A DNA stretch of 55,939 nucleotides from a virus (lineage: Duplodnaviria > Heunggongvirae > Uroviricota > Caudoviricetes): IMG/VR virus record IMGVR_UViG_2698536620_000014, one strand, 5' to 3'. The position numbers and the translations under genes were made by a program. This document shows positions 1,553 to 55,939 of the stretch, piece after piece (position 1 is the stretch's first letter; each line of letters begins with the position of its first letter). A model generated the notes under the pieces. That model saw only the letters and a list, made by a program, of their open reading frames with translations. It did not search any database and was not told where the DNA came from.

Positions 1553-1741
1553 TCACGAGGACTGAAGTTTCTCGCAATTAAAATTTATCAGTTTTACTTT
1601 CTGCTCTCTGGAAACGCCTGCTTCTTTTTTACCTGAGAGCATTTTTTCGCATTCTGATTTCGTTAGTTTAGATTTTGAATATCTTGTCCAGTTAGTAGGA
1701 GTGCCACCTTCCTTTTCAATAGTGGCGGTAATTTTATACAT
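1553..1741 (-). CDS. ydaC: YdaC-like small protein, 62 aa
   Basis: ATG at 1739-1741 preceded by GGAGGTG; product MYKITATIEKEGG... Confidence 0.65.
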   Translation of the reverse strand: MYKITATIEKEGGTPTNWTRYSKSKLTKSECEKMLSGKKEAGVSREQKVKLINFNCEKLQSS

Positions 1742-1928
1742 GAACACCTCCATTATTATTTCCAGTGGTTCGTTTATTTCATCGTTCGAGTGCTTCTTTT
1801 TCACTTCCACCATAACCGGTTCGGGATTCGCATCCGTTACACTTCGCTCGGTAATATCCTGAAATGGCTTTCACCGTTACTGATGGACAACCACAAAATG
1901 GACATGGTTTAACATTGTCATATCTCAT
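1734..1928 (-). pseudogene. ralR: Restriction-alleviation protein RalR/Lar, interrupted by in-frame TGA after codon 49
   Basis: Minus-strand ATG at 1926-1928 gives MRYDNVKPCPFCGCPSVTVKAISGYYRAKCNGCESRTGYGGSEKEALER then TGA (plus 1779-1781); the same frame continues NKRTTGNNNGGVHV to TAA at 1734-1736, which would give the 64-aa length I recall for K-12 RalR. Confidence 0.55.
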
Positions 1929-1983
1929 AATTTTTCTCATAAAAATATTTCAAGTTGGCGGTGCATTACACCGCCAGGCTGAA

Positions 1984-2793
1984 TTATTCCTCTGAATTAT
2001 CGATTACACTGTATTCCCCGGTTAATACAGAGGAATCTGCAGGATCGATTGTCAGTGGTTCCTTTTCATCCATTGATACTGCACGCTGGATCTCAATTGA
2101 TACGGGCAGATATTTGAACAGGCGACGAATAGCCGTTTTCTTTGCCATTTCTTCCCAGTGAGTTACCCACGGCCCGTTATTACCAGCTTTACTCTGGCTG
2201 CGCACCAGCTCAATCTGTTTGCGCGTCATAACTTCAAACTGAGTACCTCCGTCTTTCAGTCTTGCGACAGCATAGACGTGGGTAACAGGGGCATCTTCGT
2301 TTTCTCCTGGGCGGTGTATTAACTTTTCATCAAGGCCAAATTCGAAATTAAACTCGTCACCTTCACGGACAACACGGGCTGACAGGCTGGCGATTTGACC
2401 TGAACGGCGAGCCAGATCAATCATGCCGCGATAGCCAATGATTAGCTGAACGTTTTTTTTACCGCTCTTTTCGTTTTTATTACCAAAAGGCAGTAAATAT
2501 GCATGACCGAGGGCGCTACCGGGCTCAAGTCCGAGCTGTGAACACTGTACGATTGCACTGACAAAACTCATAGTGTCACAGTTTCCTAACGCCGGAACTT
2601 TACGAATTTCTGTGGTGGCGATACGGATCATACGTTCAGCCGTCATATGGCGTGGAAGAGCTGCTGCCAGTTGCTCTTTCATTGATGGCTGGTTAATAAA
2701 ACTAATCACGTCGTTATTTTTAATTGCTGCTGGTGCACGGTTTCCCTGAGTTTTTTGCAGATCGGCTTTTGCGATTGGTGGTTGCTTAGTCAT
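1984..2793 (-). CDS. recT: RecT single-strand annealing recombinase, 269 aa
   Basis: Start at M20 of track ORF ([13 protein letters not shown]...); overlaps recE stop, as in the Rac recET operon. Confidence 0.9.
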
Positions 2794-5386
2794 TTGCATA
2801 TTCCTTAGCCCAGCGGGGCAGTGATAACGTCTTAATAGCTGGCCATTCATCGGTATTGAGGCAGTCAGCCAGGGTTCGCAGATTGCGGTGATATTCCAGC
2901 TGACCTGCCAGTTTTGCTTCTTCGCCCATCATGAAAATTTCAACCGGATAACGTCCGCATTCAATAGTTGTGCTGGCAACCAGAAAAACGAAAGTTGGCT
3001 GCACTCCAAACTGTGCTTCATAACCGTCACTGTAGAATGCATCCTGAACGTGATAGCGGTAGTCGTAATAAGCGGTTTTGAATCGTTGAATATCCGCCGT
3101 AGTTTTCACGTCCATGATCCAGTGAAATTCAGGGATAATTTTGTCCGGACGGCACCGACACAAAATTGCTGTTTCAGGATCTTCCCAGTAAATTGATGAT
3201 TCAGCGTGTCCGGCGCTTTCAACAAGCCATTGCCCCAGCGGCAAAGCCATAACGCTCTGATACATGAGTTCAATTTTCCGGCCTTCTTCGGCAGTGATAA
3301 CCGTTTTTCCTGTGCTTGCGCATTCCCTCAGAAACGCTTTCTCTTCTTCTTTTCCGGAGTTTGTCCGGCGGTTAAATTCAGGTGCTACGATAAAGCGGTT
3401 ACTGAATTCTTCCGGCTCAAGTACCCGGCAGTGGAAAGCGGTTCCTAAATCGAGCGTTTTTGTCTTTGTGGTGTCCACGGGGGCATTTTTACGCCACAAA
3501 TACAGTGCCGGAGTATCAGCAATGTCATCGAGCTGAGACTTACTGACACCGGGACCCGCGTGGTAATTCTCATTCGAAATTCCGTAATAAATACCTGGCT
3601 CTATGTCTTCTACGATTACGGGATCTGCGACTTCGCCAGTTTCATCACTGCAATCGCGATGCGGATCGCTGCCAGCATTCTCATTGTGCGGATGTTCAGC
3701 GCCTTCCATTTCCTCCGGATCATTTTCCTTAGCTTCAACCTGACTCTCTTCATCGAATGTTTCCTGGTATGTTGCGTCGCCCATCACCGCACCACAGTCA
3801 GGGCAGTTATCCCCGCCAGTCTGGCCGCAGGCATTGCAGGCTATTTCCGGTTCCTGTTGCACTACTGGCTCAGGTTGATTCATATCCGGGCTGGTTTTTT
3901 CCGTTTCTGGCTGGTTCTGGTACACACAATCGCGAGTCTGGATCCCCTTTACCCATTTCGGATCGTTCGGGTCGCTAATTCCGTCAACAAATTCACCACG
4001 TGATGCAGCAAGCAATTTATCGGCATCGACAGGATTTTTTGATGGAATGTTTTTCCGGGCTTCATGGAGTTCTGCCCGCAGTTCCTGATATTTCGCATCA
4101 ACAGAATTTACCTGTGACTGAGCATCCAGCGGCTGCGTGTCCTGATGATGTTCAGTTGCGTCCGGTTCCATTGTTTCAGCCTCTCCCTGTTCAACTGCCG
4201 TTGTTCCAGATGGTTGCGGTTTTTCTTCATCATCCTGTTTTCCTTCTTCTGTTACTCGCTGCGGCATCGGGGCAGAGGAGCGACCGCAGGCAATATCCAC
4301 GATTTCCGGATCAGGGTTGGCATGATCGGTTTCAGTCAGTACTTTGTTCAGATATTCAGTGACGTGCGCGGGGATGACCTCGATCCCAATTGGTGCTTCT
4401 TTTACGGACGCAACCACGATGGCGCGGGAATAATCCAGCCCGCCAGGCATGGTGATGAATTTGTCGCGGAAAACAGAAAAGGGCGGTTTATTTTCAGCGA
4501 TAATTTCCTCAATGCGTTTAGCGTGTGCCGGATGAAGGTTATAGATGTCCAGATCCATTGAACGGGCCAGTACGCCAGTGGCTACGTCCCGCGCCAGTGA
4601 CGTCAGATCGTGTACGAAACCTTCGCCGCGATCGGTGAGGTTTCCGCCGCCAGCATTAGCACCGGAAGCCGTGCGAGTGATGTGTGAAACACGATTACCC
4701 TTCATCCACTCTTTTGTCAGCAGTCCTCGATCGGTGTAGTCAGCGTTCAGGTATGCTTCGAAAAAAGCAGTTATCAGTCCCAGGTTTGAATTACCAGGAT
4801 TAGGGAAAACTTTGTCAGTGTCACGAACCAGTTTGTGGAGTTCGCGAATTTCCAGCGGGTCGAGCAGGCTGGTTTTGTGGGAAACAGCCAGGGCAGTAAC
4901 AGCCGGTAGTTCTTCAGCCCGAGCAATGTGTAATGCCTGGAGTCCGTCGCGTGAAACGTGCGTTACCGGTTTTTCGCTGCCGTGTTGAGCAAGCCAACGA
5001 ATGGGCAGTTCCTGGCCAGAAATTGGGAGTAGCATATTCTCCTCAATCTCAGGCATGTCTTCGCCGTTGACGTTGGTATTGCCTTGATAGTGAGCGTTGT
5101 CTGGTGCTGCTCCCGGTTTTAGTTCCCATGTCATGGAGTCTTTGCTGAGTTGATAGCGTTCACTCCAGGTAAAATCGATCTCACCTTCAGCGGGCAGGTC
5201 ATTAACGACAGGAAAATTCGTGGCAACAGCTTTAAAATAGCTGCTCAGTTTTTTACCTGACTTAACGATCAGGTAGTCCAGAGTGGCACAGGTCGATTCA
5301 AAATCGTTGCTTGCCCACAGGACGACGTCAGGTTCACCGGATGATTTTTTCGCTTTCCGTAACAGGAAGAGTGGTTTTGTGCTCAT
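2786..5386 (-). CDS. recE: RecE exonuclease VIII, 866 aa
   Basis: 866-aa ORF, same length as K-12 RecE; acidic Cys-rich middle region; operon with recT. Confidence 0.9.
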
Positions 5387-17590: not shown

Positions 17591-18122
17591 GGGCTGGTTT
17601 ATTGTATGCCAAATGATTATTAAAAAGGTTGTGTTAATAACAAGATCCGAAATAATATGCCTGCATATTTTTATCTTGCTTATATTCTGCATATTGTGCA
17701 TAGCAGGCTCATCCCTGCAATCAAAACTGTATGATGAGTATTTTTTGTTTTCCTTTTTTCCAGTCATCTGATGATGACCTGCTTCTTTTTAATCCGGATC
17801 GACATCAGTTTTTTAAGATAATTCCTGCGAGTTATATGCATAAATGCCACAAACTCCGCATTTTATGTGGTTGGGAGTTGCCGGGCGCGCAGTGAGTTTG
17901 CTAAGAAAACTCCTGCATGGTGAATCCCCCTGTGCGGTGGGGTGATACCATTAACCTTTTCTGTCGCCGACAGGTATCACGAACATTTTGTTCACCGGGA
18001 GGCACCCGGCACCATGCACTTCAATAGATTCTCTCCACATTATGGATATTCTTTCAGAATATCCCACGCAGACTTTGTGTAAATGTTAACAAATGTGCGT
18101 TTTATTTGATCTGATTCGCTGT

Positions 18123-44053: not shown

Positions 44054-44697
44054 ATGCGTAAACTTTATGCCGCCATTTTGTCCGCAGCCATTTGTCTGGC
44101 CGTATCCGGTGCGCCTGCATGGGCGTCTGAACATCAGTCCACGCTGAGCGCGGGGTATCTTCATNNNNNNNNNNNNNNNNNNNNNNNNNNNNNNNNNNNN
44201 NNNNNNNNNNNNNNNNNNNNNNNNNNNNNNNNNNNNNNNNNNNNNNNNNNNNNNNNNNNNNNNNNNNNNNNNNNNNNNNNNNNNNNNNNNNNNNNNNNNN
44301 NTTCAGCTATGCAGGAGACAAGAATCGCCAGCTGACCCGTTACAGCGATACCCGCTGGTATGAAGATTCCGTGCGTAACCGCTGGTTCAGCGTGATGGCG
44401 GGGCCGTCTGTGCGCGTGAATGAATGGTTCAGCGCGTATGCGATGGCGGGTGTGGCTTACAGCCGTGTGTCGACTTTTTCCGGGGATTATATCCGCGTAA
44501 CTGACAATAAGGGGAAAACGCACGATGTGCTGACCGGAAGTGATGACGGTCGCCACAGCAACACGTCTCTGGCGTGGGGAGCTGGCGTGCAGTTTAACCC
44601 GACCGAATCCGTGGCCATTGATATTGCTTATGAAGGCTCCGGCAGTGGCGACTGGCGCACTGACGGTTTCATCGTGGGTGTCGGTTATAAATTCTGA
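44054..44697 (+). CDS. lom: Lom/Ail-family outer membrane protein; middle of gene replaced by assembly gap
   Basis: Signal peptide MRKLYAAILSAAICLAVSGAPAWA before the gap; after it, beta-barrel C-terminus ...SGSGDWRTDGFIVGVGYKF closely matching lambda Lom. Confidence 0.7.
44165..44301. other. Assembly gap (137 N) inside lom
   Basis: Run of N. Confidence 0.99.
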
Positions 44698-44724
44698 TTA
44701 GCCAGGTAACACAGTGTTATGACA

Positions 44725-44750
44725 GCCCGCCGGTTCAGGCGGGCTTTTTT
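44725..44750 (+). terminator. Rho-independent terminator after lom
   Basis: gcccgcc-ggttca-ggcgggc hairpin followed by tttttt. Confidence 0.6.
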
Positions 44751-44761
44751 GTGGGGTGAAT

Positions 44762-46542
44762 ATGGCAGTAAAGATTTCAGGTGTACTGAAAGACGGCACA
44801 GGAAAACCGGTACAGAACTGCACAATCCAGCTGAAAGCAAAACGTAACAGCACCACGGTGGTGGTGAACACGCTGGCCTCAGAAAATCCGGATGAAGCCG
44901 GGCGTTACAGCATGGACGTTGAGTACGGTCAGTACAGCGTTATTCTGTTGGTGGAAGGATTCCCGCCGTCACATGCCGGGACCATCACCGTGTATGAAGA
45001 TTCCCGACCCGGTACGCTGAATGATTTTCTCGGTGCCATGACGGAGGATGATGCCCGTCCGGAGGCTCTGCGCCGTTTTGAACTGATGGTGGAAGAGGTG
45101 GCGCGTAACGCGTCCGCGGTGGCACAGAACACGGCAGCCGCGAAGAAGTCAGCCAGTGATGCCGGCACATCTGCCCGTGAGGCGGCAACCCATGCGACTG
45201 ATGCTGCAGGCTCAGCGCGTGCAGCCAGCACGTCAGCCGGACAGGCCGCGACTTCGGCTCAGGAGGCGTCTTCCAGCGCAGGAACGGCATCAACAAAGGC
45301 CACTGAAGCATCAAAAAGTGCTGCCGCTGCAGAGTCCTCAAAAAGCGCGGCGGCCACCAGTGCCGGTGCGGCGAAAACGTCAGAAACGAATGCTGCAGCG
45401 TCACAAAAATCAGCAGCCACTTCTGCATCCACTGCGACAACGAAAGCGTCAGAAGCCGCCACTTCAGCCAGAGATGCGGCGGCCTCCAAAGAGGCGGCAA
45501 AATCATCAGAAACGAACGCCTCCACAAGCGCCAGCAGTGCAGCCTCCTCGGCAACGGCGGCAGGAAATTCCGTGAAGGCGGCAAAAACGTCCGAGACGAA
45601 TGCTAAGTCTTCTGAAACGGCAGCGGAACAGAGCGCCTCAGCTGCGGCAGACTCTGAGACAGCAGCTGCATCATCGGCCCGTGAGGCGTCCATTAAGGCA
45701 GAGGAGGCAGCAGTCAGTGCCACCGCCGCCGGAAAATCGGCAGAAAGCGCCGCATCATCCGCTTCAACAGCCACAACGAAGGCTGGCGAAGCCACTGAAC
45801 AGGCCAGCGCAGCAGCGAGGTCTGCTTCCGCAGCGAAGACATCCGAAACGAACGCGAAAGCGTCGGAAACCAGCGCAGAATCCTCAAAAACGGCTGCCGC
45901 ATCGTCCGCCAGTTCGGCGGCGTCATCGGCATCATCTGCGTCTGCTTCAAAAGATGAGGCGACCAGACAGGCGTCAGCAGCGAGGGGCAGCGCCACGACG
46001 GCATCCACGAAGGCGACAGAGGCTGCTGGCAGTGCGGCAGCGGCAGCACAGAGCAAAAGTACGGCGGAATCCGCGGCAACGCGCGCCGAGACAGCAGCAA
46101 AACGGGCAGAGGATATTGCATCCGCCGTGGCGCTTGAGGATGCGAGCACGACGAAAAAGGGGATAGTACAGCTCAGCAGTGCGACCAACAGCACTTCCGA
46201 GTCACAGGCGGCAACGCCAAAAGCCGTTAAGGCCGCGTATGACCTGGCTAACGGGAAATACACCGCACAGGATGCAACGACAGCACAAAAAGGAATTGTC
46301 CAGCTCAGTAGTGCAACCAACAGCACATCTGAAACGCTTGCTGCGACACCGAAAGCAGTGAAAGCAGCTAATGACAATGCGAATGGTCGGGTACCTTCTG
46401 CCCGTAAGGTGAATGGTAAGGCGCTTTCAGCGGATATAACACTGACGCCGAAAGATATTGGTACGCTTAACTCAACAACAATGTCATTCAGCTATGCAGG
46501 AGACAAGAATCGCCAGCTGACCCGTTACAGCGATACCCGCTG
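44762..46542 (+). other. Side tail fibre gene, diverged 5' copy; reading frame runs into lom-derived sequence and a contig junction
   Basis: ATG 44762; near-identical to the N-terminus of the stf at 46814 for about the first 130 codons, then diverges in the Ala/Ser/Thr repeat region; after ...LNSTTMS (46486) the sequence is the 56-57 nt lom segment also found at 44302-44358, then a single N. Confidence 0.5.
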
Positions 46543-46749
46543 GNTCGCGTAACTGACAACAAGGGGAAAACGCACGATGTGCTGACCGGAAGTGATGACG
46601 GTCGCCACAGCAACACGTCTCTGGCGTGGGGAGCTGGCGTGCAGTTTAACCCGACCGAATCCGTGGCCATTGATATTGCTTATGAAGGCTCCGGCAGTGG
46701 CGACTGGCGCACTGACGGTTTCATCGTGGGTGTCGGTTATAAATTCTGA
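46487..46749 (+). other. Second partial copy of the lom 3' region (contains single-N contig join at 46543)
   Basis: Matches 44302-44358 and 44494-44697 of the first lom copy with at least one substitution; about 136 nt of the first copy is absent at the N. Confidence 0.5.
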
Positions 46750-46776
46750 TTAGCCAGGTAACACAGTGTTATGACA

Positions 46777-46802
46777 GCCCGCCGGTTCAGGCGGGCTTTT
46801 TT
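46777..46802 (+). terminator. Rho-independent terminator (copy of the lom terminator)
   Basis: Same gcccgcc / ggcgggc hairpin plus T-run as at 44725-44750. Confidence 0.6.
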
Positions 46803-46813
46803 GTGGGGTGAAT

Positions 46814-49800
46814 ATGGCAGTAAAGATTTCAGGTGTACTGAAAGACGGCACAGGAAAACCGGTACAGAACTGCACAATCCAGCTGAAAGCAAAACGTAAC
46901 AGCACCACGGTGGTGGTGAACACGCTGGCCTCAGAAAATCCGGATGAAGCCGGGCGTTACAGCATGGACGTTGAGTACGGGCAGTACAGCGTTATTCTGT
47001 TGGTGGAGGGATTCCCGCCGTCACATGCCGGGACCATCACCGTGTATGAAGATTCCCGACCCGGTACGCTGAATGATTTTCTCGGTGCCATGACGGAGGA
47101 TGATGCCCGTCCTGAGGCACTGCGCCGCTTTGAACTGATGGTGGAAGAGGTGGCGCGTAACGCGTCCGCGGTGGCACAGAACACGGCAGCCGCGAAGAAA
47201 TCAGCCAGCGATGCCAGCACATCAGCCCGTGAGGCGGCAACCCGTGCGACTGATGCTGCAGGCTCAGCACGAGCAGCCAGCACGTCAGCCGGACAGGCCG
47301 CTTCGTCGGCTCAGTCTGCGTCTTCCAGCGCAGGAACGGCATCAGCAAAGGCCACTGAAGCATCAAAAAGTGCTGCCGCTGCAGAGTCCTCAAAAAGCGC
47401 GGCGGCCACCAGTGCCGGTGCGGCGAAAACGTCAGAAACGAATGCGGCAGCGTCACAACAATCAGCTGCCACTTCTGCATCCACCGCGACCACGAAAGCG
47501 TCAGAAGCAGCCACCTCAGCCAGAGATGCGTCGGCTTCAAAAGAGGCGGCAAAATTATCAGAAACGAGCGCAGCTTCGAGCGCCAGTAATGCCGCTTCCT
47601 CGGCAACGGCGGCAGGAAATTCCGCGAAGGCGGCAAAGACGTCTGAGACAAACGCTAAGTCCTCTGAAACGGCAGCAGCACAGAGTGCCTCCGCAGCAGC
47701 AGGCTCAAAAACAGCGGCTGCGTCGTCTGCCAGTGCAGCGTCAACAAGTGCCGGGCAGGCCTCAGCCAGTGCTAGCGCCGCCGGAAAATCGGCAGAAAGC
47801 GCCGCATCGTCCGCTTCAACAGCCACAACGAAGGCTGGCGAAGCCACTGAACAGGCCAGTGCAGCAGCGAGGTCTGCTTCCGCAGCGAAGACATCGGAGA
47901 CGAACGCGAAAGCGTCGGAGACCAGCGCAGAATCCTCAAAAACGGCTGCCGCATCGTCCGCCAGTTCGGCGGCGTCATCGGCATCATCGGCGTCTGCTTC
48001 AAAAGATGAGGCGACCAGACAAGCGTCCGCAGCGAAGGGCAGCGCCACGACAGCATCCACGAAGGCGACAGAGGCTGCTGGCAGTGCGACGGCGGCAGCA
48101 CAGAGCAAAAGTACGGCGGAATCCGCGGCAACGCGCGCCGAGACAGCGGCAAAACGTGCAGAGGATATTGCATCCGCCGTGGCGCTTGAGGATGCGAGCA
48201 CGACGAAAAAGGGGATAGTACAGCTCAGTAGTGCGACTAATAGCACGTCTGAAACGCTGGCGGCAACGCCAAAGGCAGTAAAAGCAGCCAATGACAATGC
48301 TGAGAAACGTCTGCAGAAAGACCAGAACGGCGCTGATATACCCGATAAGGGACGCTTCCTGAACAACATTAACGCGGTCAGTAAAACAGACTTTGCTGAT
48401 AAGCGTGGTATGCGTTATGTGCGGGTTAACGCTCCTGCAGGTGCAACATCTGGAAAATATTACCCTGTTGTTGTTATGCGTTCTGCTGGCTCAGTAAGCG
48501 AACTGGCATCAAGGGTCATTATCACCACGGCAACGCGAATCGCAGGCGATCCGATGAATAACTGCGAGTTTAACGGATTTGTTATGCCTGGTGGCTGGAC
48601 TGACAGGGGGCGTTATGCTTATGGAATGTTCTGGCAATATCAAAACAATGAACGAGCCATCCACTCAATAATGATGAGTAATAAGGGCGATGATTTGCGC
48701 TCTGTGTTCTATGTTGATGGCGCTGCTTTCCCTGTTTTTGCGTTTCTCGAAGATGGCCTGTCAATATCCGCACCTGGTGCTGATCTCGTTGTTAATGATA
48801 CGACCTATAAGTTTGGGGCAACAAATCCGGCGACTGAATGTATCGCGGCGGACGTTATCCTTGATTTTAAGAGTGGGCGTGGTTTTTATGAGTCTCATTC
48901 GTTAATCGTTAACGATAACTTGTCGTGCAAAAAACTTTTTGCCACAGACGAAATTGTAGCGCGTGGTGGTAATCAGATTCGAATGATAGGTGGGGAGTAT
49001 GGTGCATTATGGCGTAATGATGGCGCTAAAACTTACCTGCTGCTTACCAATCAAGGTGATGTTTATGGTGGCTGGAATACATTAAGACCGTTTGTTATTG
49101 ATAACGCAACCGGCGAACTGGTTATTGGAACCAAACTGTCTGCAAGTCTGAACGGTAACGCATTGACAGCAACAAAGCTGCAAACGCCAAGACTGGTTTC
49201 TGGTGTTGAGTTTGATGGTTCCAAAGATATTACTTTAACCGCCGCGCATGTGGCTGCTTTTGCCAGAAGGGCAACGGATACATATGCCGATGCGGATGGT
49301 GGCGTTCCATGGAATGCCGAATCAGGCGCTTACAATGTCACCCGCTCTGGCAACAGCTATATTCTGGTTAACTTCTATACCGGAGTCGGAAGTTGCCGGA
49401 CCTTGCAGATGAAGGCGCATTACAGAAATGGTGGTCTGTTCTACCGTTCTTCAAGAGACGGTTATGGTTTTGAGGAAGACTGGGCAGAAGTTTATACCTC
49501 GAAAAATCTTCCACCAGAAAGCTACCCAGTCGGTGCACCAATCCCGTGGCCATCAGATACCGTTCCGTCTGGTTATGCCCTGATGCAGGGACAGACTTTT
49601 GACAAATCTGCTTACCCGAAACTTGCAGCCGTTTATCCGTCAGGTGTGATCCCTGATATGCGTGGCTGGACGATTAAGGGCAAACCTGCCAGTGGTCGGG
49701 CCGTATTGTCTCAGGAACAGGACGGCATTAAATCGCATACCCACAGCGCCAGCGCATCCAGTACGGATTTGGGGACGAAAACCACATCGTCGTTTGATTA

Positions 49801-50212
49801 CGGCACTAAATCCACGAATAACACTGGTGCGCATACCCATAGTTTAAGTGGCAGCACGAATGCAGCTGGTAATCACAGCCATAGAGATGGCCGTCGATTT
49901 AACCCCAGTGTTTTTAAAGATACTTATCAATATGGTTATACAAGCTCAGGTCAAAATACCTGGGGTGTACAAGGCTCAGTAGGTATGTCTACGGGGTGGT
50001 TAGCGAATACCAGTACAGATGGTAATCATAGCCACTCACTGTCCGGCACAGCAGCATCTGCAGGTGCACACGCGCATACTGTCGGTATTGGTGCTCATAC
50101 GCACTCCGTTGCGATTGGTTCACATGGACATACCATCACCGTTAACGCTGCGGGTAACGCGGAAAACACCGTCAAAAACATCGCATTTAACTATATTGTG
50201 AGGCTTGCATAA
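46814..50212 (+). CDS. stfR: Side tail fibre protein (StfR-like), about 1132 aa
   Basis: ATG 46814 after GGGGTG; long Ala/Ser/Thr-rich repeat region; His-rich C-terminus (GAHTHSLSG...GNHSHSLSG...[24 protein letters not shown]) typical of fibre tips; followed by tfa. Confidence 0.85.
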
Positions 50213-50796
50213 TGGCATTCAGAATGAGTGAACAACCACGGACCATAAAAATTTATAATCTGCTGACCGGAACTAATGAATTTATTGGTGAAGGTGACGC
50301 ATATATTCCGCCTCATACAGGTCTGCCAGCAAACAGTACCTATATTGCACCGCCAGATATTCCGGCTGGCTTTGTGGCTGTTTTCAACAGTGATGAGGCA
50401 TCGTGGCATCTCGTTGAAGACCATCGGGGTAAAACGGTTTATGACGTAGCGTCAGGGGACGCGTTATTTATTTCTGAACTCGGTCCGTTACCGGAAAATG
50501 TTACCTGGTTATCCCCGGAAGGGGAATATCAGAAGTGGAACGGTACAGCTTGGGTGAAAGATGCAGAAGCAGAAAAACTATTCCGGATCCGGGAGGCGGA
50601 AGAAACAAAAAACAGCCTGATGCAGGTAGCCAGTGAGCATATTGCGCCGCTTCAGGATGCTGCAGATCTGGAAATCGCAACGGAGGAAGAAACCTCGTTG
50701 CTGGAAGCCTGGAAAAAGTATCGGGTGTTGCTGAACCGTGTTGATACATCAACTGCACCTGATATTGAGTGGCCTGCGGTCCCTGTTATGGAGTAA
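50212..50796 (+). CDS. tfaR: Tail fibre assembly protein (Tfa), 194 aa
   Basis: ATGG overlap with the stf stop; size and position of lambdoid Tfa. Confidence 0.85.
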
Positions 50797-50908
50797 TCGT
50801 TTTGTGATATGCCGCAGCAACTTGTCATGGCAGGATACTGCGGCTGATTTGTGAATTTAAATAGTGTGTTTATTGCTTTATATATAAAGGATTTAATGGA
50901 TTACATAT

Positions 50909-52279
50909 CTATGATATCCCTGAAATGTCCTCTTCAAGCTCTTTTACTGATTTCGCAATTTTAAATTTAAATTTTCTCTCTATTTCACTATTGCTAAGTT
51001 TTTTTTCATTCTCTTTCCCTATCCACATAGAAACAATTTCTCGTTTCTGAGATATATGTAGATTGTCAAAGTTAGGTATGTATTTAAAAGTCTCCGCTCT
51101 ACCCCTGCGGAGTTCATAGAAAGTTTTAATCAAAGACTTTGGTTTTATTTCTGATGAAAGGCCGAATCGGCGGATAAGATTATTGATCGTATGATTAACA
51201 GCTCGAAGTTGAGCTGTTGACGTTATTTGTGAGAAGTACGATACCCATCCCAATCGTTTACCTTCAAACACACATCCCGTAATTCTAAGATTTAGTTTCC
51301 ACTGACAATATGCAACAGCTCGTTCTTTATCGCGCTTATTTTTAGCTTGTAGTAGAGCGTGTCTATATGCAGTAAAAATTTTTGCTAAGGATGACTCAAA
51401 TCTAAGAATGCTCTCATGTTTTATCAATAATTCTCGATTTTTTATGTGGTAGCCCAAAAAGTTGAAACTTTCATCCAAGCTGCCTACTTTGGATTTTGAG
51501 TTCTCTTCATTTAATGGATGTGGGTTTAAATTTAATGATTGAAGCTTATCAATGATATGAGAAGCTATTTTTGTTGCTTGATATTTTGGTGTTAAAATAA
51601 GAATGTCATCAACGTATCGCATGTACCATATGTCATGCATTTTATTGATTTCATCATCGAAATTAGATAGTGATATTTCAGCTAAAATGTTTGATATCGC
51701 TAATCCCTGAGGTACTCCTCTGGTATTATTAGGGATACCTTTGCTTCCTGTGGTTCCACTTACAGTAGGCACGATTAATGATGATGTTATTAACTGTCTA
51801 ATTTCTTTTTTTCTAATTTTATTTTTTATTGCATTAATTATCAATTTATGTTCAATTGAAGGATAGAAACTTTTAAGATCTATTTTTGCATATTCAGCAT
51901 ATAGACTGTTGTTTAATGCTTCTTTCAATGAGTCAATTACTGTATGTGGTAGTTTTAATCTGGACTTAGGATATATTTCCGTAAGGCATTCACAGAGAGC
52001 TCTAAGAGTAATTCTGTCCCTAGCAGTTGGTATGGAAATCTGTCTGGGTGTAGAGTTAGCGCCTTTAGATATTAATTTTTCTTTATATGCTGTAAATTTG
52101 TAATTGCCAGAATTAACCTTTTCAAAAATGAAAGTGATCTCATTTTTTATTGTCAAATCAAGTTTTGATGGGCGAATCCGATCTATGCCAATCGCTCCTG
52201 ATTCTTTGATTTTTTCAGAGTATACTTTTAGAAGATTTTTTTTCGAGAATGACTTTTTAAAAATTCTGCTTGCAGTCAT
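50909..52279 (-). CDS. Reverse transcriptase (defence-associated type: retron-like or UG/Abi-like), 456 aa
   Basis: RT motifs in translation: KIDLKSFYPSI, GVPQGLAISNILAEISL, YMRYVDDILIL (YxDD active site), FNFLGYHI. ATG at 52277-52279 lies 23 nt inside the upstream membrane-protein ORF. AT-rich. Confidence 0.85.
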   Translation of the reverse strand: MTASRIFKKSFSKKNLLKVYSEKIKESGAIGIDRIRPSKLDLTIKNEITFIFEKVNSGNYKFTAYKEKLISKGANSTPRQISIPTARDRITLRALCECLTEIYPKSRLKLPHTVIDSLKEALNNSLYAEYAKIDLKSFYPSIEHKLIINAIKNKIRKKEIRQLITSSLIVPTVSGTTGSKGIPNNTRGVPQGLAISNILAEISLSNFDDEINKMHDIWYMRYVDDILILTPKYQATKIASHIIDKLQSLNLNPHPLNEENSKSKVGSLDESFNFLGYHIKNRELLIKHESILRFESSLAKIFTAYRHALLQAKNKRDKERAVAYCQWKLNLRITGCVFEGKRLGWVSYFSQITSTAQLRAVNHTINNLIRRFGLSSEIKPKSLIKTFYELRRGRAETFKYIPNFDNLHISQKREIVSMWIGKENEKKLSNSEIERKFKFKIAKSVKELEEDISGIS

Positions 52280-52808
52280 AGTCAATCCAAAGATATATTA
52301 ATGGGAGTATATAAAGTGCGGCAGTAATAAATATTCGAAGTAATATCCATAAAATAACAATTATTTTTTCTTTTTGTGTGGGGATCCTCGTCTTAAGTCC
52401 AACTTGAGTTACCCTTGAAATTTTATCATCTATGTCACGGTGATTCTCAACCTCATTGAGCAAATTAAAATATTTTTCTTTCTGTTCAAGAGATAACTGT
52501 TGACTGGTGGTAATGTCAAAATAGAGTCGCTGTAGTGCAATATAATTCCTTCTCATGGCTATTGCTCGACCACGAAAATCTAGGTTAGATACGATCAGAG
52601 AAATACCCAGTAGAGCCACTGAAAGTATCGCCGCAACGACATCTGTATTATCTCCTAGAACCTTTGGAAATCGCAACGTTACAATTGAAAGTACCGCACT
52701 CAATATAGCATACCAAACGAGGATAAATTGAGAGTGTTTTTCAAGCCATTCTAGTCGATGGTGCGCTTGGATACGTGCTTTATATGTAAACCAAATATTG
52801 TCATGCAT
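52257..52808 (-). CDS. Multi-pass membrane protein co-transcribed with the RT (candidate effector), 183 aa
   Basis: ATG 52806-52808 after AAGGA; hydrophobic helices LVWYAILSAVLSIVTL, VVAAILSVALLGISLIVSNL and IIVILWILLRIFITAALYILPLIYLW. Confidence 0.7.
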   Translation of the reverse strand: MHDNIWFTYKARIQAHHRLEWLEKHSQFILVWYAILSAVLSIVTLRFPKVLGDNTDVVAAILSVALLGISLIVSNLDFRGRAIAMRRNYIALQRLYFDITTSQQLSLEQKEKYFNLLNEVENHRDIDDKISRVTQVGLKTRIPTQKEKIIVILWILLRIFITAALYILPLIYLWIDYDCKQNF

Positions 52809-53030
52809 AAAAGATCCTTTTTAAAAGCGGAAGGGGCAGGATATATTGGAACCGTTGAACATCCTGCCCGGCAGGATCAGTGAGCATAAGCTCAACAGTA
52901 AAATATTACTGTTCATTATCAGAGCCGCCCTTGCATGCGCAAGAGGAAAAACCTGCCCCATCCCTTTGAATTATTACAATTTAATGATCTTAAAGTCAAT
53001 ACAAGTGAATGGTGTCCAGAGATGATGAAC
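52809..53030 (-). ncRNA. Structured non-coding region upstream of the membrane-protein/RT operon (candidate RT-associated ncRNA or operator)
   Basis: Four copies of a GGGCAGGAT-type arm in alternating orientation (52833-52842, 52861-52869, 52870-52877, 52952-52959) plus a small cttgc-atgc-gcaag hairpin (52930-52943); no ORF. Confidence 0.3.
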
Positions 53031-53279
53031 TTAATGAACAAACCACTCGTCAGCAGACTCCCAGGTATCTTTCAGAGTCTCCTGAACAAAAGTTTTAGCT
53101 GAATCTTTATCAGCGGTGCGCGTAACAGAAAGGCCATCGTTGCTGGTGGCTTTTACGATCACTTCTACATCGTCATAACGTTTACTGATGCGTCGGGTTA
53201 ATTCTTCCTTTAACGCATCCACAGCACCGGTTGGCATTTTAGTCATTTTTTCTTTGGCTATGCAGATTTCAATACGCAT
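53031..53279 (-). CDS. DinI-like protein, 82 aa
   Basis: [35 protein letters not shown]...[17 protein letters not shown] resembles E. coli DinI as I recall it. Confidence 0.8.
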
Positions 53280-53339
53280 AAAAGTCCCCTACACTGTATT
53301 TGTATACAGTATTATTTTTAACTGTATGGATAAACAGTG

Positions 53340-54437
53340 TCAAGAGGTCTTATTTCTGCTCCTTTGGAGTTCTTCAAAACGATTATGTAAAGATTTCGGA
53401 TACAGTTCGGTATATACCTGCCATAGCACGTTTAATGAACGATGCCCTGTAACCTGAGCGACTTCCTCAATACTAAAACCAGCCTCAAATAAGCGACTTG
53501 CCCCTTCTCTACGCAAATCATGGTATCTCAGATCTTTAATACCTAATTTGCTTCTTACCCTCTGAAATCCTGCGGTAACAGAAGTGCTGTTATATGGAAA
53601 AATGAATTCTGATTTTTTGGGTTGTCGCTGGACGATATCCCAGGCTTCCCCAAGCAAGGCAACTTTCATATGGTTGCCTTCCTTTTTACGTGGATCTTTC
53701 CTGTCTCTTACTAGTATAGATTTTTGTTCCTGGTCGAGATCTTCCCATCGTAACCGGCATACTTCTCCGATTCGCATACAGGACCACACAGAAAATTTGA
53801 GGATATCAACGAACGGAATTTTTGAGCATTTATGAGTAGATCGTTGTTGAAGGCCTTCAATGAGCATGTTCAGTTCATCAGATGCTGGTCTACGATTACG
53901 ACGGTTTGATTTACCAATCAAACCGAGTTTAAGTAGATATGGACGAGCGCTTTTCGCCGGGTTTGATGTGTAATTGATTCCGTATACAGGTTTTGCCGCA
54001 TCCAGAACACTGCCAAGATAACTAACATCGTGGCTGACTGTTGCTGGGCCTGCACCAGCGTTGTTTCTTAGCCTGCAATGTTCAATTACGTCATTTTCTG
54101 TCAGTTCAGATAGTTTGATCGCGGAGATGTCACTATCCATAAGCAGTTCCAGCACATATCTTTTAGTACGGCCTGCTTTACCTCCGGCATTTGGGTCATT
54201 TAAATATTTGTGTAGTAAGTCACGGACTGTAAGTCCGTCAACAGCATTTGATGATGGAATGCCATATAGATCTAATTCCATCACTTTCTGTGCGCCCCAT
54301 GTTTTGGCATGAGCATGTTTAGGGAATGTTTTGCTTTCCCTGTAAGTGATAACACCTTTTTCTTTGATAATCACATTACAGCGATAGCGTGGTGTGCCAT
54401 CGGATTTTAGTCGTTTCTCTATGTTATAGTACGCCAT
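53340..54437 (-). CDS. Tyrosine integrase adjacent to dusA (candidate DusA-associated integrase), 365 aa
   Basis: C-terminal catalytic region with HDLRREGASRLFEAGFSIEEVAQVTGHRSLNVLWQVY (H-x-x-R ... Y); divergent from dusA with an 88-bp spacer. Confidence 0.85.
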   Translation of the reverse strand: MAYYNIEKRLKSDGTPRYRCNVIIKEKGVITYRESKTFPKHAHAKTWGAQKVMELDLYGIPSSNAVDGLTVRDLLHKYLNDPNAGGKAGRTKRYVLELLMDSDISAIKLSELTENDVIEHCRLRNNAGAGPATVSHDVSYLGSVLDAAKPVYGINYTSNPAKSARPYLLKLGLIGKSNRRNRRPASDELNMLIEGLQQRSTHKCSKIPFVDILKFSVWSCMRIGEVCRLRWEDLDQEQKSILVRDRKDPRKKEGNHMKVALLGEAWDIVQRQPKKSEFIFPYNSTSVTAGFQRVRSKLGIKDLRYHDLRREGASRLFEAGFSIEEVAQVTGHRSLNVLWQVYTELYPKSLHNRFEELQRSRNKTS

Positions 54438-54456
54438 TACACGACCTCGTTATTTC

Positions 54457-54493
54457 GGGTTCCCATAAAGCGTGGGAACCTGTGCGGGAACCT
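54457..54493. repeat. Inverted and direct GGGAACC repeats in the int-dusA spacer (candidate integrase-binding or att-associated sites)
   Basis: gggttccc (54457-54464) is the inverted partner of gggaacc (54474-54480); gggaacct is directly repeated at 54486-54493. Confidence 0.35.
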
Positions 54494-54525
54494 AACGCGA
54501 GAAAAATAGCCTGAAATGTTCAAAA

Positions 54526-55563
54526 ATGCACGATAATCCTGAAACACAGAAAACTAATCAAACCAGCGTGATGCCTGAAAAAACTGGCGCTTACTGGAGT
54601 TCTCGGTTTAGCATTGCTCCTATGCTCGACTGGACGGACAGACATTGCCGCTATTTCTTGCGTCTGCTTTCCCGCAATACGTTGCTGTATACCGAAATGG
54701 TGACCACAGGGGCGATTATTCACGGTAAAGGTGATTACCTGGCGTACAGTGAAGAAGAACATCCGGTAGCGTTGCAACTCGGCGGTAGCGATCCGGCGGC
54801 GCTGGCACAGTGTGCGAAGCTGGCAGAAGCGCGTGGATATGATGAGATCAACCTGAATGTCGGCTGCCCGTCTGACCGGGTGCAGAACGGCATGTTTGGT
54901 GCGTGTCTGATGGGTAATGCGCAGCTGGTTGCCGACTGCGTGAAAGCGATGCGCGATGTGGTGTCGATTCCAGTGACGGTGAAAACGCGTATTGGCATCG
55001 ATGACCAGGACAGCTATGAATTTCTCTGCGATTTCATCAACACCGTTTCCGGCAAAGGCGAGTGTGAGATGTTTATCATCCACGCACGTAAAGCCTGGCT
55101 TTCGGGGTTAAGCCCGAAAGAAAACCGTGAAATCCCGCCACTCGATTATCCGCGTGTGTATCAACTGAAGCGTGACTTTCCGCATCTGACAATGTCGATT
55201 AACGGTGGTATCAAGTCGCTGGAAGAGGCCAAAGCACACCTGCAACATATGGATGGCGTGATGGTCGGGCGCGAGGCGTATCAGAATCCGGGTATTCTGG
55301 CGGCGGTAGACCGGGAGATCTTTGGTTCCTCGGATACCGATGCCGATCCGGTGGCGGTAGTGCGCGCCATGTATCCGTACATTGAGCGTGAACTCAGCCA
55401 GGGGACGTATCTCGGCCATATTACCCGGCATATGTTGGGCTTGTTCCAGGGTATTCCTGGCGCGCGGCAGTGGCGGCGTTATTTAAGTGAAAATGCCCAT
55501 AAAGCGGGTGCAGACATTAATGTGCTGGAACACGCGCTCAAACTGGTGGCGGATAAGCGTTAA
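54526..55563 (+). CDS. dusA: tRNA-dihydrouridine synthase A, 345 aa
   Basis: Dus-family core with [22 protein letters not shown]...[14 protein letters not shown]...; host housekeeping gene. Confidence 0.9.
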
Positions 55564-55696
55564 CTTTTCACCAAAAAGTAGTCAAATTCACCACGCCCTG
55601 CGCACCGTCGCGGGGCGTTTTGCTGTTAAATCAATAGATTATTTTTGGCATGATTCTTGTAATGCCAGCAAGAGATTTCATATTTGGGAGAGCATC

Positions 55697-55939
55697 ATGC
55701 TGGAACTACTTTTTGTGATTGGCTTTTTTGTCATGCTGATGGTCACCGGCGTTTCGTTGCTGGGCATTATCGCCGCGCTGGTTGTGGCGACGGCCATTAT
55801 GTTCCTCGGCGGTATGCTGGCATTGATGATTAAGTTGCTGCCGTGGTTACTACTGGCGATTGCGGTGGTGTGGGTTATTAAGGCGATTAAAGCACCAAAA
55901 GTGCCGAAATATCAGCGTTATGACCGCTGGCGTTACTAA
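55697..55939 (+). CDS. pspG: Phage shock protein G, 80 aa
   Basis: ATG 55697 after GGGAGAG; MLELLFVIGFFVMLMVTGVSLLGIIAALVV... small inner-membrane protein downstream of dusA, as in K-12. Confidence 0.85.
   Translation: MLELLFVIGFFVMLMVTGVSLLGIIAALVVATAIMFLGGMLALMIKLLPWLLLAIAVVWVIKAIKAPKVPKYQRYDRWRY

Follow-up and report, generated by a model that had tools for sequence, protein, structure and literature searches.

A Trp50-to-opal allele of the prophage toxin gene ralR circulates in Escherichia coli and most likely encodes an inactive 49-residue product

The left end of the window analysed here, a stretch of 55,939 nt recorded as a caudoviricete (IMG/VR record IMGVR_UViG_2698536620_000014), carries on its minus strand the leftward early operon of a Rac-type prophage, recE-recT-ralR-ydaC-xisR-intR, in which ralR stops after 49 codons. 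The locus thus raises the question of whether this stop is real, whether it is the ancestral or the derived state, and what it leaves of the function of RalR. Translation of positions 1734-1928 (minus strand) yields MRYDNVKPCPFCGCPSVTVKAISGYYRAKCNGCESRTGYGGSEKEALER, a stop, NKRTTGNNNGGVHV and a second stop. The ralR CDS occupies positions 1779-1928, with its ATG at 1928 and 49 codons followed by a TGA (1779-1781), as an earlier note on this DNA had read it; in an identical sequence PGAP predicts an unflagged 150-nt ralR CDS (RefSeq WP_001443846.1) and not a pseudogene. Past the TGA the frame is open, as that note had claimed, and the former 3' end of the gene (1734-1778, minus strand) comprises 14 sense codons, rather than the 15 counted there, and the original TAA (1736-1734). 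The full frame accordingly amounts to 49 + 1 + 14 = 64 codons, which is the K-12 length. This former 3' end is now untranslated. Both the start codon (ATG, 1741-1739) and the Shine-Dalgarno sequence (GGAGG, 1751-1747) of the next gene downstream, a DUF1187 gene (ydaC), lie within it, and the start of ydaC overlaps the old end of ralR by 8 nt (ATGTATAA), including the TAA, in agreement with the earlier reading. Of the surrounding genes, recT (1984-2793, minus strand) lies upstream of ralR, as identified from the ORF list and from PGAP annotation of NCTC10444, where the sequence is identical, and the ORF list and PGAP also place recE at 2786-5386, xisR at 1238-1453 and intR at 1-1236, all on the minus strand. 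A GC-rich hairpin (GGCGGTG...CACCGCC, at about 1957-1975) is situated between recT and ralR.

The closest characterized system is the RalR/RalA pair of the K-12 Rac prophage (b1348/b4714, PMC4041452), with which the window shares the gene order recT-ralR-ydaC and the antisense ralA gene. The ralR sequences are 99% identical at the nucleotide level, and RalA and both 16-nt pairing elements are the same in the two; the toxin frame of the window, however, ends at codon 49 instead of 64 and lacks W50, N51, K52 and R53, and its DUF1187 gene encodes 62 amino acids instead of 69. In MG1655, ralR (b1348) is 195 nt long and encodes 64 amino acids with a tryptophan at position 50. Comparison with K-12 over 461 bp, covering ralR and the downstream gene, revealed four differences. 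The first is a single base in a T-run upstream of ralR, which has five T in the window (1941-1945, just upstream of an alternative in-frame ralR ATG at 1940) and six in K-12, and the last is one base in the stop codon of the downstream gene. Only two differences fall within ralR, namely nt 145 A>C, synonymous in Arg49 (AGA in K-12, CGA at 1782-1784 of the window, minus strand), and nt 150 G>A, which converts the TGG of Trp50 to the opal codon TGA at 1779-1781. The mutated base is at position 1779 (A on the coding strand, T on the plus strand). The single G-to-A change at a Trp codon, proposed earlier from the sequence alone, is thus what the MG1655 alignment displays at codon 50, with a synonymous AGA>CGA at codon 49 beside it. 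The 45 nt that follow the new stop are 100% identical to K-12, and the match of the open frame to the K-12 gene end is therefore not due to chance.

An error of sequencing or assembly, with TGG as the true codon, would account for such a change by the general chance of a single wrong base, and nothing further speaks for it. The same base is present in 308 independently assembled complete genomes, in the RefSeq protein WP_001443846.1 and in at least 1,000 contigs carrying the exact 49-residue protein; these population data rule the error out and leave it a negligible probability, and they likewise exclude an event private to one strain. Among the matches listed, the whole 461-bp region was 100% identical in 40 of 40 complete E. 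coli genomes. Exact matches to an 81-nt query centred on the mutated site were then counted in 5,426 complete E. coli genomes: the haplotype of the window (CGA-TGA) occurred in 308, and the K-12 version (AGA-TGG) in 1,110, a count swollen by laboratory derivatives of K-12 and B. Overall, the W50-to-stop allele is present in about one-sixth of the complete E. coli genomes that carry ralR, and its carriers include O26, O103 and O111 strains as well as human, bovine, avian and environmental isolates.

The two substitutions within ralR, 5 nt apart (AGA>CGA at 1784 and TGG>TGA at 1779), are completely linked on the 81-nt background, and neither of the single-step intermediates CGA-TGG and AGA-TGA yielded an exact match on this background in the 5,426 complete genomes. 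The linked pair could be the product of a single multi-base event, of a small conversion patch, or of two steps with subsequently lost intermediates. In O157:H7, CGA occurs together with TGG, on a different background.

The direction of the change is settled by the other haplotypes and by outgroups. Five other E. coli ralR haplotypes (92-99% identical, O157:H7 among them) have TGG and a 195-nt gene, TGG is likewise found at codon 50 in the species representatives of E. ruysiae and Shigella flexneri, the RalR proteins of E. albertii and E. marmotae are full-length (64 amino acids), and the Salmonella and Citrobacter homologues retain W50 within RWNKR or RWNRR. These sequences show that TGA is the derived state, reached from a 64-codon ancestor. 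The opposite polarity, with an ancestral short form and the 64-residue RalR of K-12 as a stop-loss extension, has a parallel in the neighbouring gene: K-12 rcbA reaches 69 amino acids through a TGA-to-AGA change, while every other haplotype encodes 62 amino acids covering the full DUF1187 profile. For ralR itself this polarity is ruled out by the outgroup species and genera, all of which have W50-N-[K/R]-R, by a WNxR motif invariant across the family, and by Pfam and TIGRFAM profiles that run beyond the new stop; its probability is vanishingly small. Reference alleles that end at the same position, which the earlier note would have taken as evidence against a truncation, do exist (the 308 complete genomes and at least 1,000 contigs), but all are copies of one derived allele and consequently provide no evidence for an ancestral short form.

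As for the neighbour, the ydaC frame of the window ends at a TGA (1553-1555, minus strand) after 62 amino acids, as it does in all five other non-K-12 haplotypes sampled, whereas in K-12 this codon is AGA and the frame continues to 69 amino acids. On this comparison K-12 rcbA looks like a stop-loss derivative, with a polarity opposite to that of ralR. The variant base, at window position 1555, lies 2 nt upstream of the 5' end of RalA.

What the stop takes from the protein was examined with family profiles, an alignment and a structural model. The 49-residue product retains the zinc ribbon (C9, C12, C30 and C33, with C9, P10, F11, C12 and G13 forming CPFCG). It scores 126.9 bits against the NCBIfam RalR model NF007260 (cut-off 113), aligning to profile positions 1-49 of 64, compared with 166 bits for the 64-residue form. 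Against Pfam PF14354, a profile of 58 positions, it reaches 39 bits (cut-off 28.6) over positions 2-52 only, and the 64-residue protein 53.5 bits over positions 2-58, so that truncation costs 14.5 bits; with TIGR03655 the score falls from 55.3 bits for 64 residues to 40.3 bits for 49, only just above the cut-off of 39.6. The product of the window therefore resembles the Lar family (PF14354, TIGR03655) in having a short helix after the CPFCG...CxxC zinc ribbon, in its location in a phage or prophage early region and in scoring above both cut-offs. Where it departs from the family is the C-terminal motif. When 1.84 billion cluster representatives were searched with an HMM, 3,968 Lar-family members were recovered at E <= 0.001, of which 76 single-domain representatives of 45-80 amino acids, less than 50% identical to one another, were aligned to K-12 RalR; they form the top of the score-ranked list and are thus biased towards query-like sequences. 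C9, P10, F11, C12, G13, C30, C33, W50, N51 and R53 were invariant in 76 of 76. None of these representatives ended before R53, and each had at least two residues after it, the tail varying from 2 to 29 amino acids. Bias of the ranked sample notwithstanding, conservation in 76 of 76 without gaps is, at the level of the alignment, unambiguous. With a stop in place of W50, the RalR of the window is missing the family-invariant W-N-x-R motif, before which 0 of 76 representatives end.

An AlphaFold2 model of a 64-residue homologue (mean pLDDT 78) predicts a beta-hairpin at residues 17-30 and a single helix at 43-52, the last turn of which would be removed by the stop. Foldseek comparison of this model with the PDB retrieved generic zinc ribbons only (Elf1/ELOF1, eIF2-beta and RNA polymerase C11, all with E > 0.1) and no nuclease fold, and a sequence search of solved structures returned only spurious matches to CbpD.

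These losses can be set against published work on K-12 RalR. The "restriction alleviation" under which the earlier note listed the gene is its older name; the current annotation is that of the DNase toxin of the RalR/RalA system (Guo et al., 2014, PMC4041452), where RalR was toxic on expression and cleaved DNA. Changes recovered by error-prone PCR at residues 14, 37, 39, 49, 51 and 52 reduced toxicity, a four-residue replacement at 43-46 abolished it, and a purified residue-52 mutant, written inconsistently as K52Q and K52G in that paper, failed to cleave DNA (PMC4041452). Two of the six residues needed for toxicity or DNase activity, 51 and 52, are located past the stop at codon 50. The effects of point mutants at these two positions, together with the conservation of the motif, make it most likely that RalR activity is abolished or severely reduced. 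As the role of RalR is disputed, having been described as restriction alleviation (King and Murray, 1995, as cited in PMC4041452) and as that of a DNase toxin (Guo et al., 2014), "inactive" can be argued only for toxicity and the DNase assay.

It would be a different matter if the zinc ribbon and most of the helix sufficed and the 15 C-terminal residues were dispensable or modulatory, so that the 49-residue protein were still functional. The four Zn-binding cysteines and CPFCG are indeed kept, the HMM scores exceed curated cut-offs, PGAP calls the gene intact, and the allele is common and free of a second lesion in the sampled copies; the variable tail of 2-29 amino acids after R53 even suggests that residues 54-64 are probably dispensable. 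The same cannot be said of the residues before them, given that all 76 representatives have W50, N51 and R53 and none of them ends earlier, and that changes at 51 and 52 cut toxicity and a residue-52 mutant had no DNase activity (PMC4041452). A functional 49-residue RalR is accordingly regarded as unlikely.

A second way in which activity might survive is through the stop codon itself. UGA is the leakiest stop of E. coli, and read-through inserts Trp (PMC7918605), which is here the ancestral residue, so that near-cognate tRNA-Trp reading of the UGA would restore wild-type 64-residue RalR, and the allele would be a leaky hypomorph with a lower toxin dose; some wild-type protein may still be made. 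The frame downstream is open and identical to K-12, and the linked AGA>CGA could in principle affect termination. The ralR TGA is followed by A, which does not constitute the strongest termination context. The open frame, however, is equally explained by a young allele and by the overlap with the ribosome-binding site of ydaC, O157:H7 combines the synonymous change with TGG, and natural isolates generally terminate efficiently at UGA. A leaky-stop hypomorph is therefore considered quite improbable. The more specific proposal, that the opal allele is not null but tunes the dose, rare tRNA-Trp read-through supplying about 0.1-1% of normal 64-residue RalR, is held to be very doubtful. If it were true, a full-length Rac-like prophage would retain a little Lar/RalR activity without incurring self-toxicity, the linked AGA>CGA would modulate termination efficiency, and the recurrent W50-to-stop, N51D and R53Q alleles would reflect selection for attenuation rather than neutral decay.

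Two kinds of recoding were also considered and rejected. The ydaC frame is open upstream to an ATG at 1813 (an 86-codon ORF, 1553-1813), which makes a fusion of RalR(1-49) to YdaC formally possible; no slippery motif for a programmed +1 frameshift at CGA-UGA into this frame is present, and a P-site tRNA-Arg on CGA should not be able to re-pair on GAU. Selenocysteine recoding of the UGA has no reason behind it, Trp being the ancestral residue.

The partners of ralR at the locus are intact. The RalA antitoxin sRNA is encoded in full length on the plus strand at 1557-1735 (Rfam RF02694, 225.1 bits against a gathering threshold of 170, model positions 1-179 of 179), has no differences from K-12 and corresponds to it in coordinates. 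Its 16-nt pairing element (TGCTTCTTTTTTACCT, 1619-1634, plus strand, in ralA) is identical to that of K-12 and forms a direct repeat with the 16-nt pairing site in ralR (AAGTGAAAAAGAAGCA, 1791-1806, minus strand, codons 41-46); this pairing site was defined experimentally by Guo et al. (2014, PMC4041452). The ralR target is likewise intact and equal to K-12, and 9 nt separate its end from the new stop downstream. With RalA and its target preserved and ralR truncated, the locus looks like a type I toxin-antitoxin pair in which the toxin has been disarmed and the antitoxin persists. The DUF1187 gene (ydaC/rcbA homologue, 1553-1741, minus strand, antisense to ralA) encodes a 62-residue protein (WP_001302840.1 in PGAP) that matches Pfam PF06688 with 132 bits over profile positions 1-61 of 61. 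It retains its GGAGG ribosome-binding site 5 nt upstream of the ATG, and its translation is thus probably independent of ribosomes arriving from ralR.

A comparable situation is offered by the hok/sok copies of E. coli K-12, which are mostly inactive according to the introduction of PMC4041452: there too a small toxin ORF has been disabled by simple mutation while the antisense RNA gene and the locus remain. The families are unrelated, Hok being a membrane peptide and RalR a zinc-ribbon protein, and for the ralR of the window inactivation is what we infer. Phage lambda Ral occupies an equivalent position in a leftward early operon, and restriction alleviation has historically been attributed to both proteins, but Ral has no meaningful similarity to RalR (24% identity, PMC4041452) and is not a member of the family.

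Taken together, the locus is best explained as a genuine, circulating W50-to-opal allele of ralR whose 49-residue product is most likely null or a strong hypomorph, and we consider this explanation to be probable. A 64-codon ancestor acquired TGG>TGA, which is inherited together with the adjacent synonymous AGA>CGA; the resulting protein would keep the zinc ribbon and lose the last helix turn and the W-N-x-R motif, and would most likely be non-toxic and inactive. RalA and its target would persist as an antitoxin without a toxin to repress, and the DUF1187 gene would be translated from its own ribosome-binding site. Such a pattern would fit either ordinary decay or a disarming of a prophage-borne toxin favoured by selection. 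The sampled copies of the allele are free of secondary decay and the prophage still has head, tail and lysis genes, which suggests that the allele is recent or tolerated. Counter to this explanation stand the intact zinc ribbon, the RalR and Lar HMM cut-offs that are passed and the absence of a pseudogene flag in PGAP. The gene, the system and the allele, the last as a RefSeq protein, are already catalogued, and the literature search retrieved no relevant description of a truncated ralR allele; new here are the polarity of the change, the frequency of the allele and the argument against the RefSeq "toxin" annotation.

Other variants of ralR were encountered during the survey. Two fairly common alleles, R53Q (P0036, 360 contigs) and N51D (P0038, 339 contigs), each change a residue of the invariant C-terminal motif. 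In P0012, ralR appears to have been fused to ydaC by a deletion running from one 16-nt RalA-pairing repeat to the other; P0015 is a second ralR-ydaC fusion with a different junction. The gene seems to have been disabled repeatedly in E. coli. A 2.9-kb contig of an "uncultured Roseburia sp." MAG (L012, CALWLV010000260.1) carries an E. coli Rac ralR whose translation matches K-12 RalR; the contig almost certainly belongs to E. coli and was mis-binned.

Beyond the early operon, the two ends of the window carry different integrase genes, intR (1-1236) on the left and a dusA-adjacent tyrosine integrase (53340-54437) on the right. From position 1 to about 46.4 kb it follows the NCTC10444 Rac prophage at ttcA (99.2-99.96% identity over 1-44.2 kb and 96% over 44.3-46.4 kb), and positions 46546-55939 follow the end of a dusA-integrated prophage that is present in 57 genomes (98.9% identity to an O177:H21 strain). 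The junction lies in the tail-fibre region (~44300-46800), which contains tandem tail-fibre genes with N-terminal domains (44756-46552 and 46808-50212). A Rac-like left part and a dusA-prophage-like right part that meet at the tail fibres suggest recombination between prophages or an inversion, or else a composite assembly. The right part harbours, flanked by the tail-fibre assembly gene and the integrase on the dusA side, a cluster of the DRT type of anti-phage prophage cargo (50909-52808, minus strand), comprising a defence-associated reverse transcriptase (PADLOC RT_UG17, 527 bits; Pfam RVT_1) and, overlapping it upstream, a SLATT_5 two-transmembrane effector (RTasSLATT, 189 bits); in the O177:H21 annotation a DinI-like gene stands beside this pair. 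Two further sRNAs were detected at gathering level with Rfam, STnc100 at 17885-18071 (plus strand, 86.6 bits) and IS009 at 50555-50753 (plus strand, 224.8 bits), the latter inside the tail-fibre assembly gene.

The W50-to-stop change in ralR is a commonplace nonsense polymorphism of an accessory prophage gene and does not define a new kind of system. Its consequences are, in the first place, a matter of annotation hygiene, for the RefSeq name "endodeoxyribonuclease toxin RalR" is carried unflagged by the 49-residue product in hundreds of genomes, including those of O26, O103 and O111 strains, and inventories of toxin-antitoxin or anti-restriction systems probably err for these strains if they count this product among the active toxins. 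The natural allele series of 64-residue, W50-to-stop, N51D and R53Q forms can also be used to approach the question of whether RalR acts as a DNase toxin, in restriction alleviation, or in both ways.
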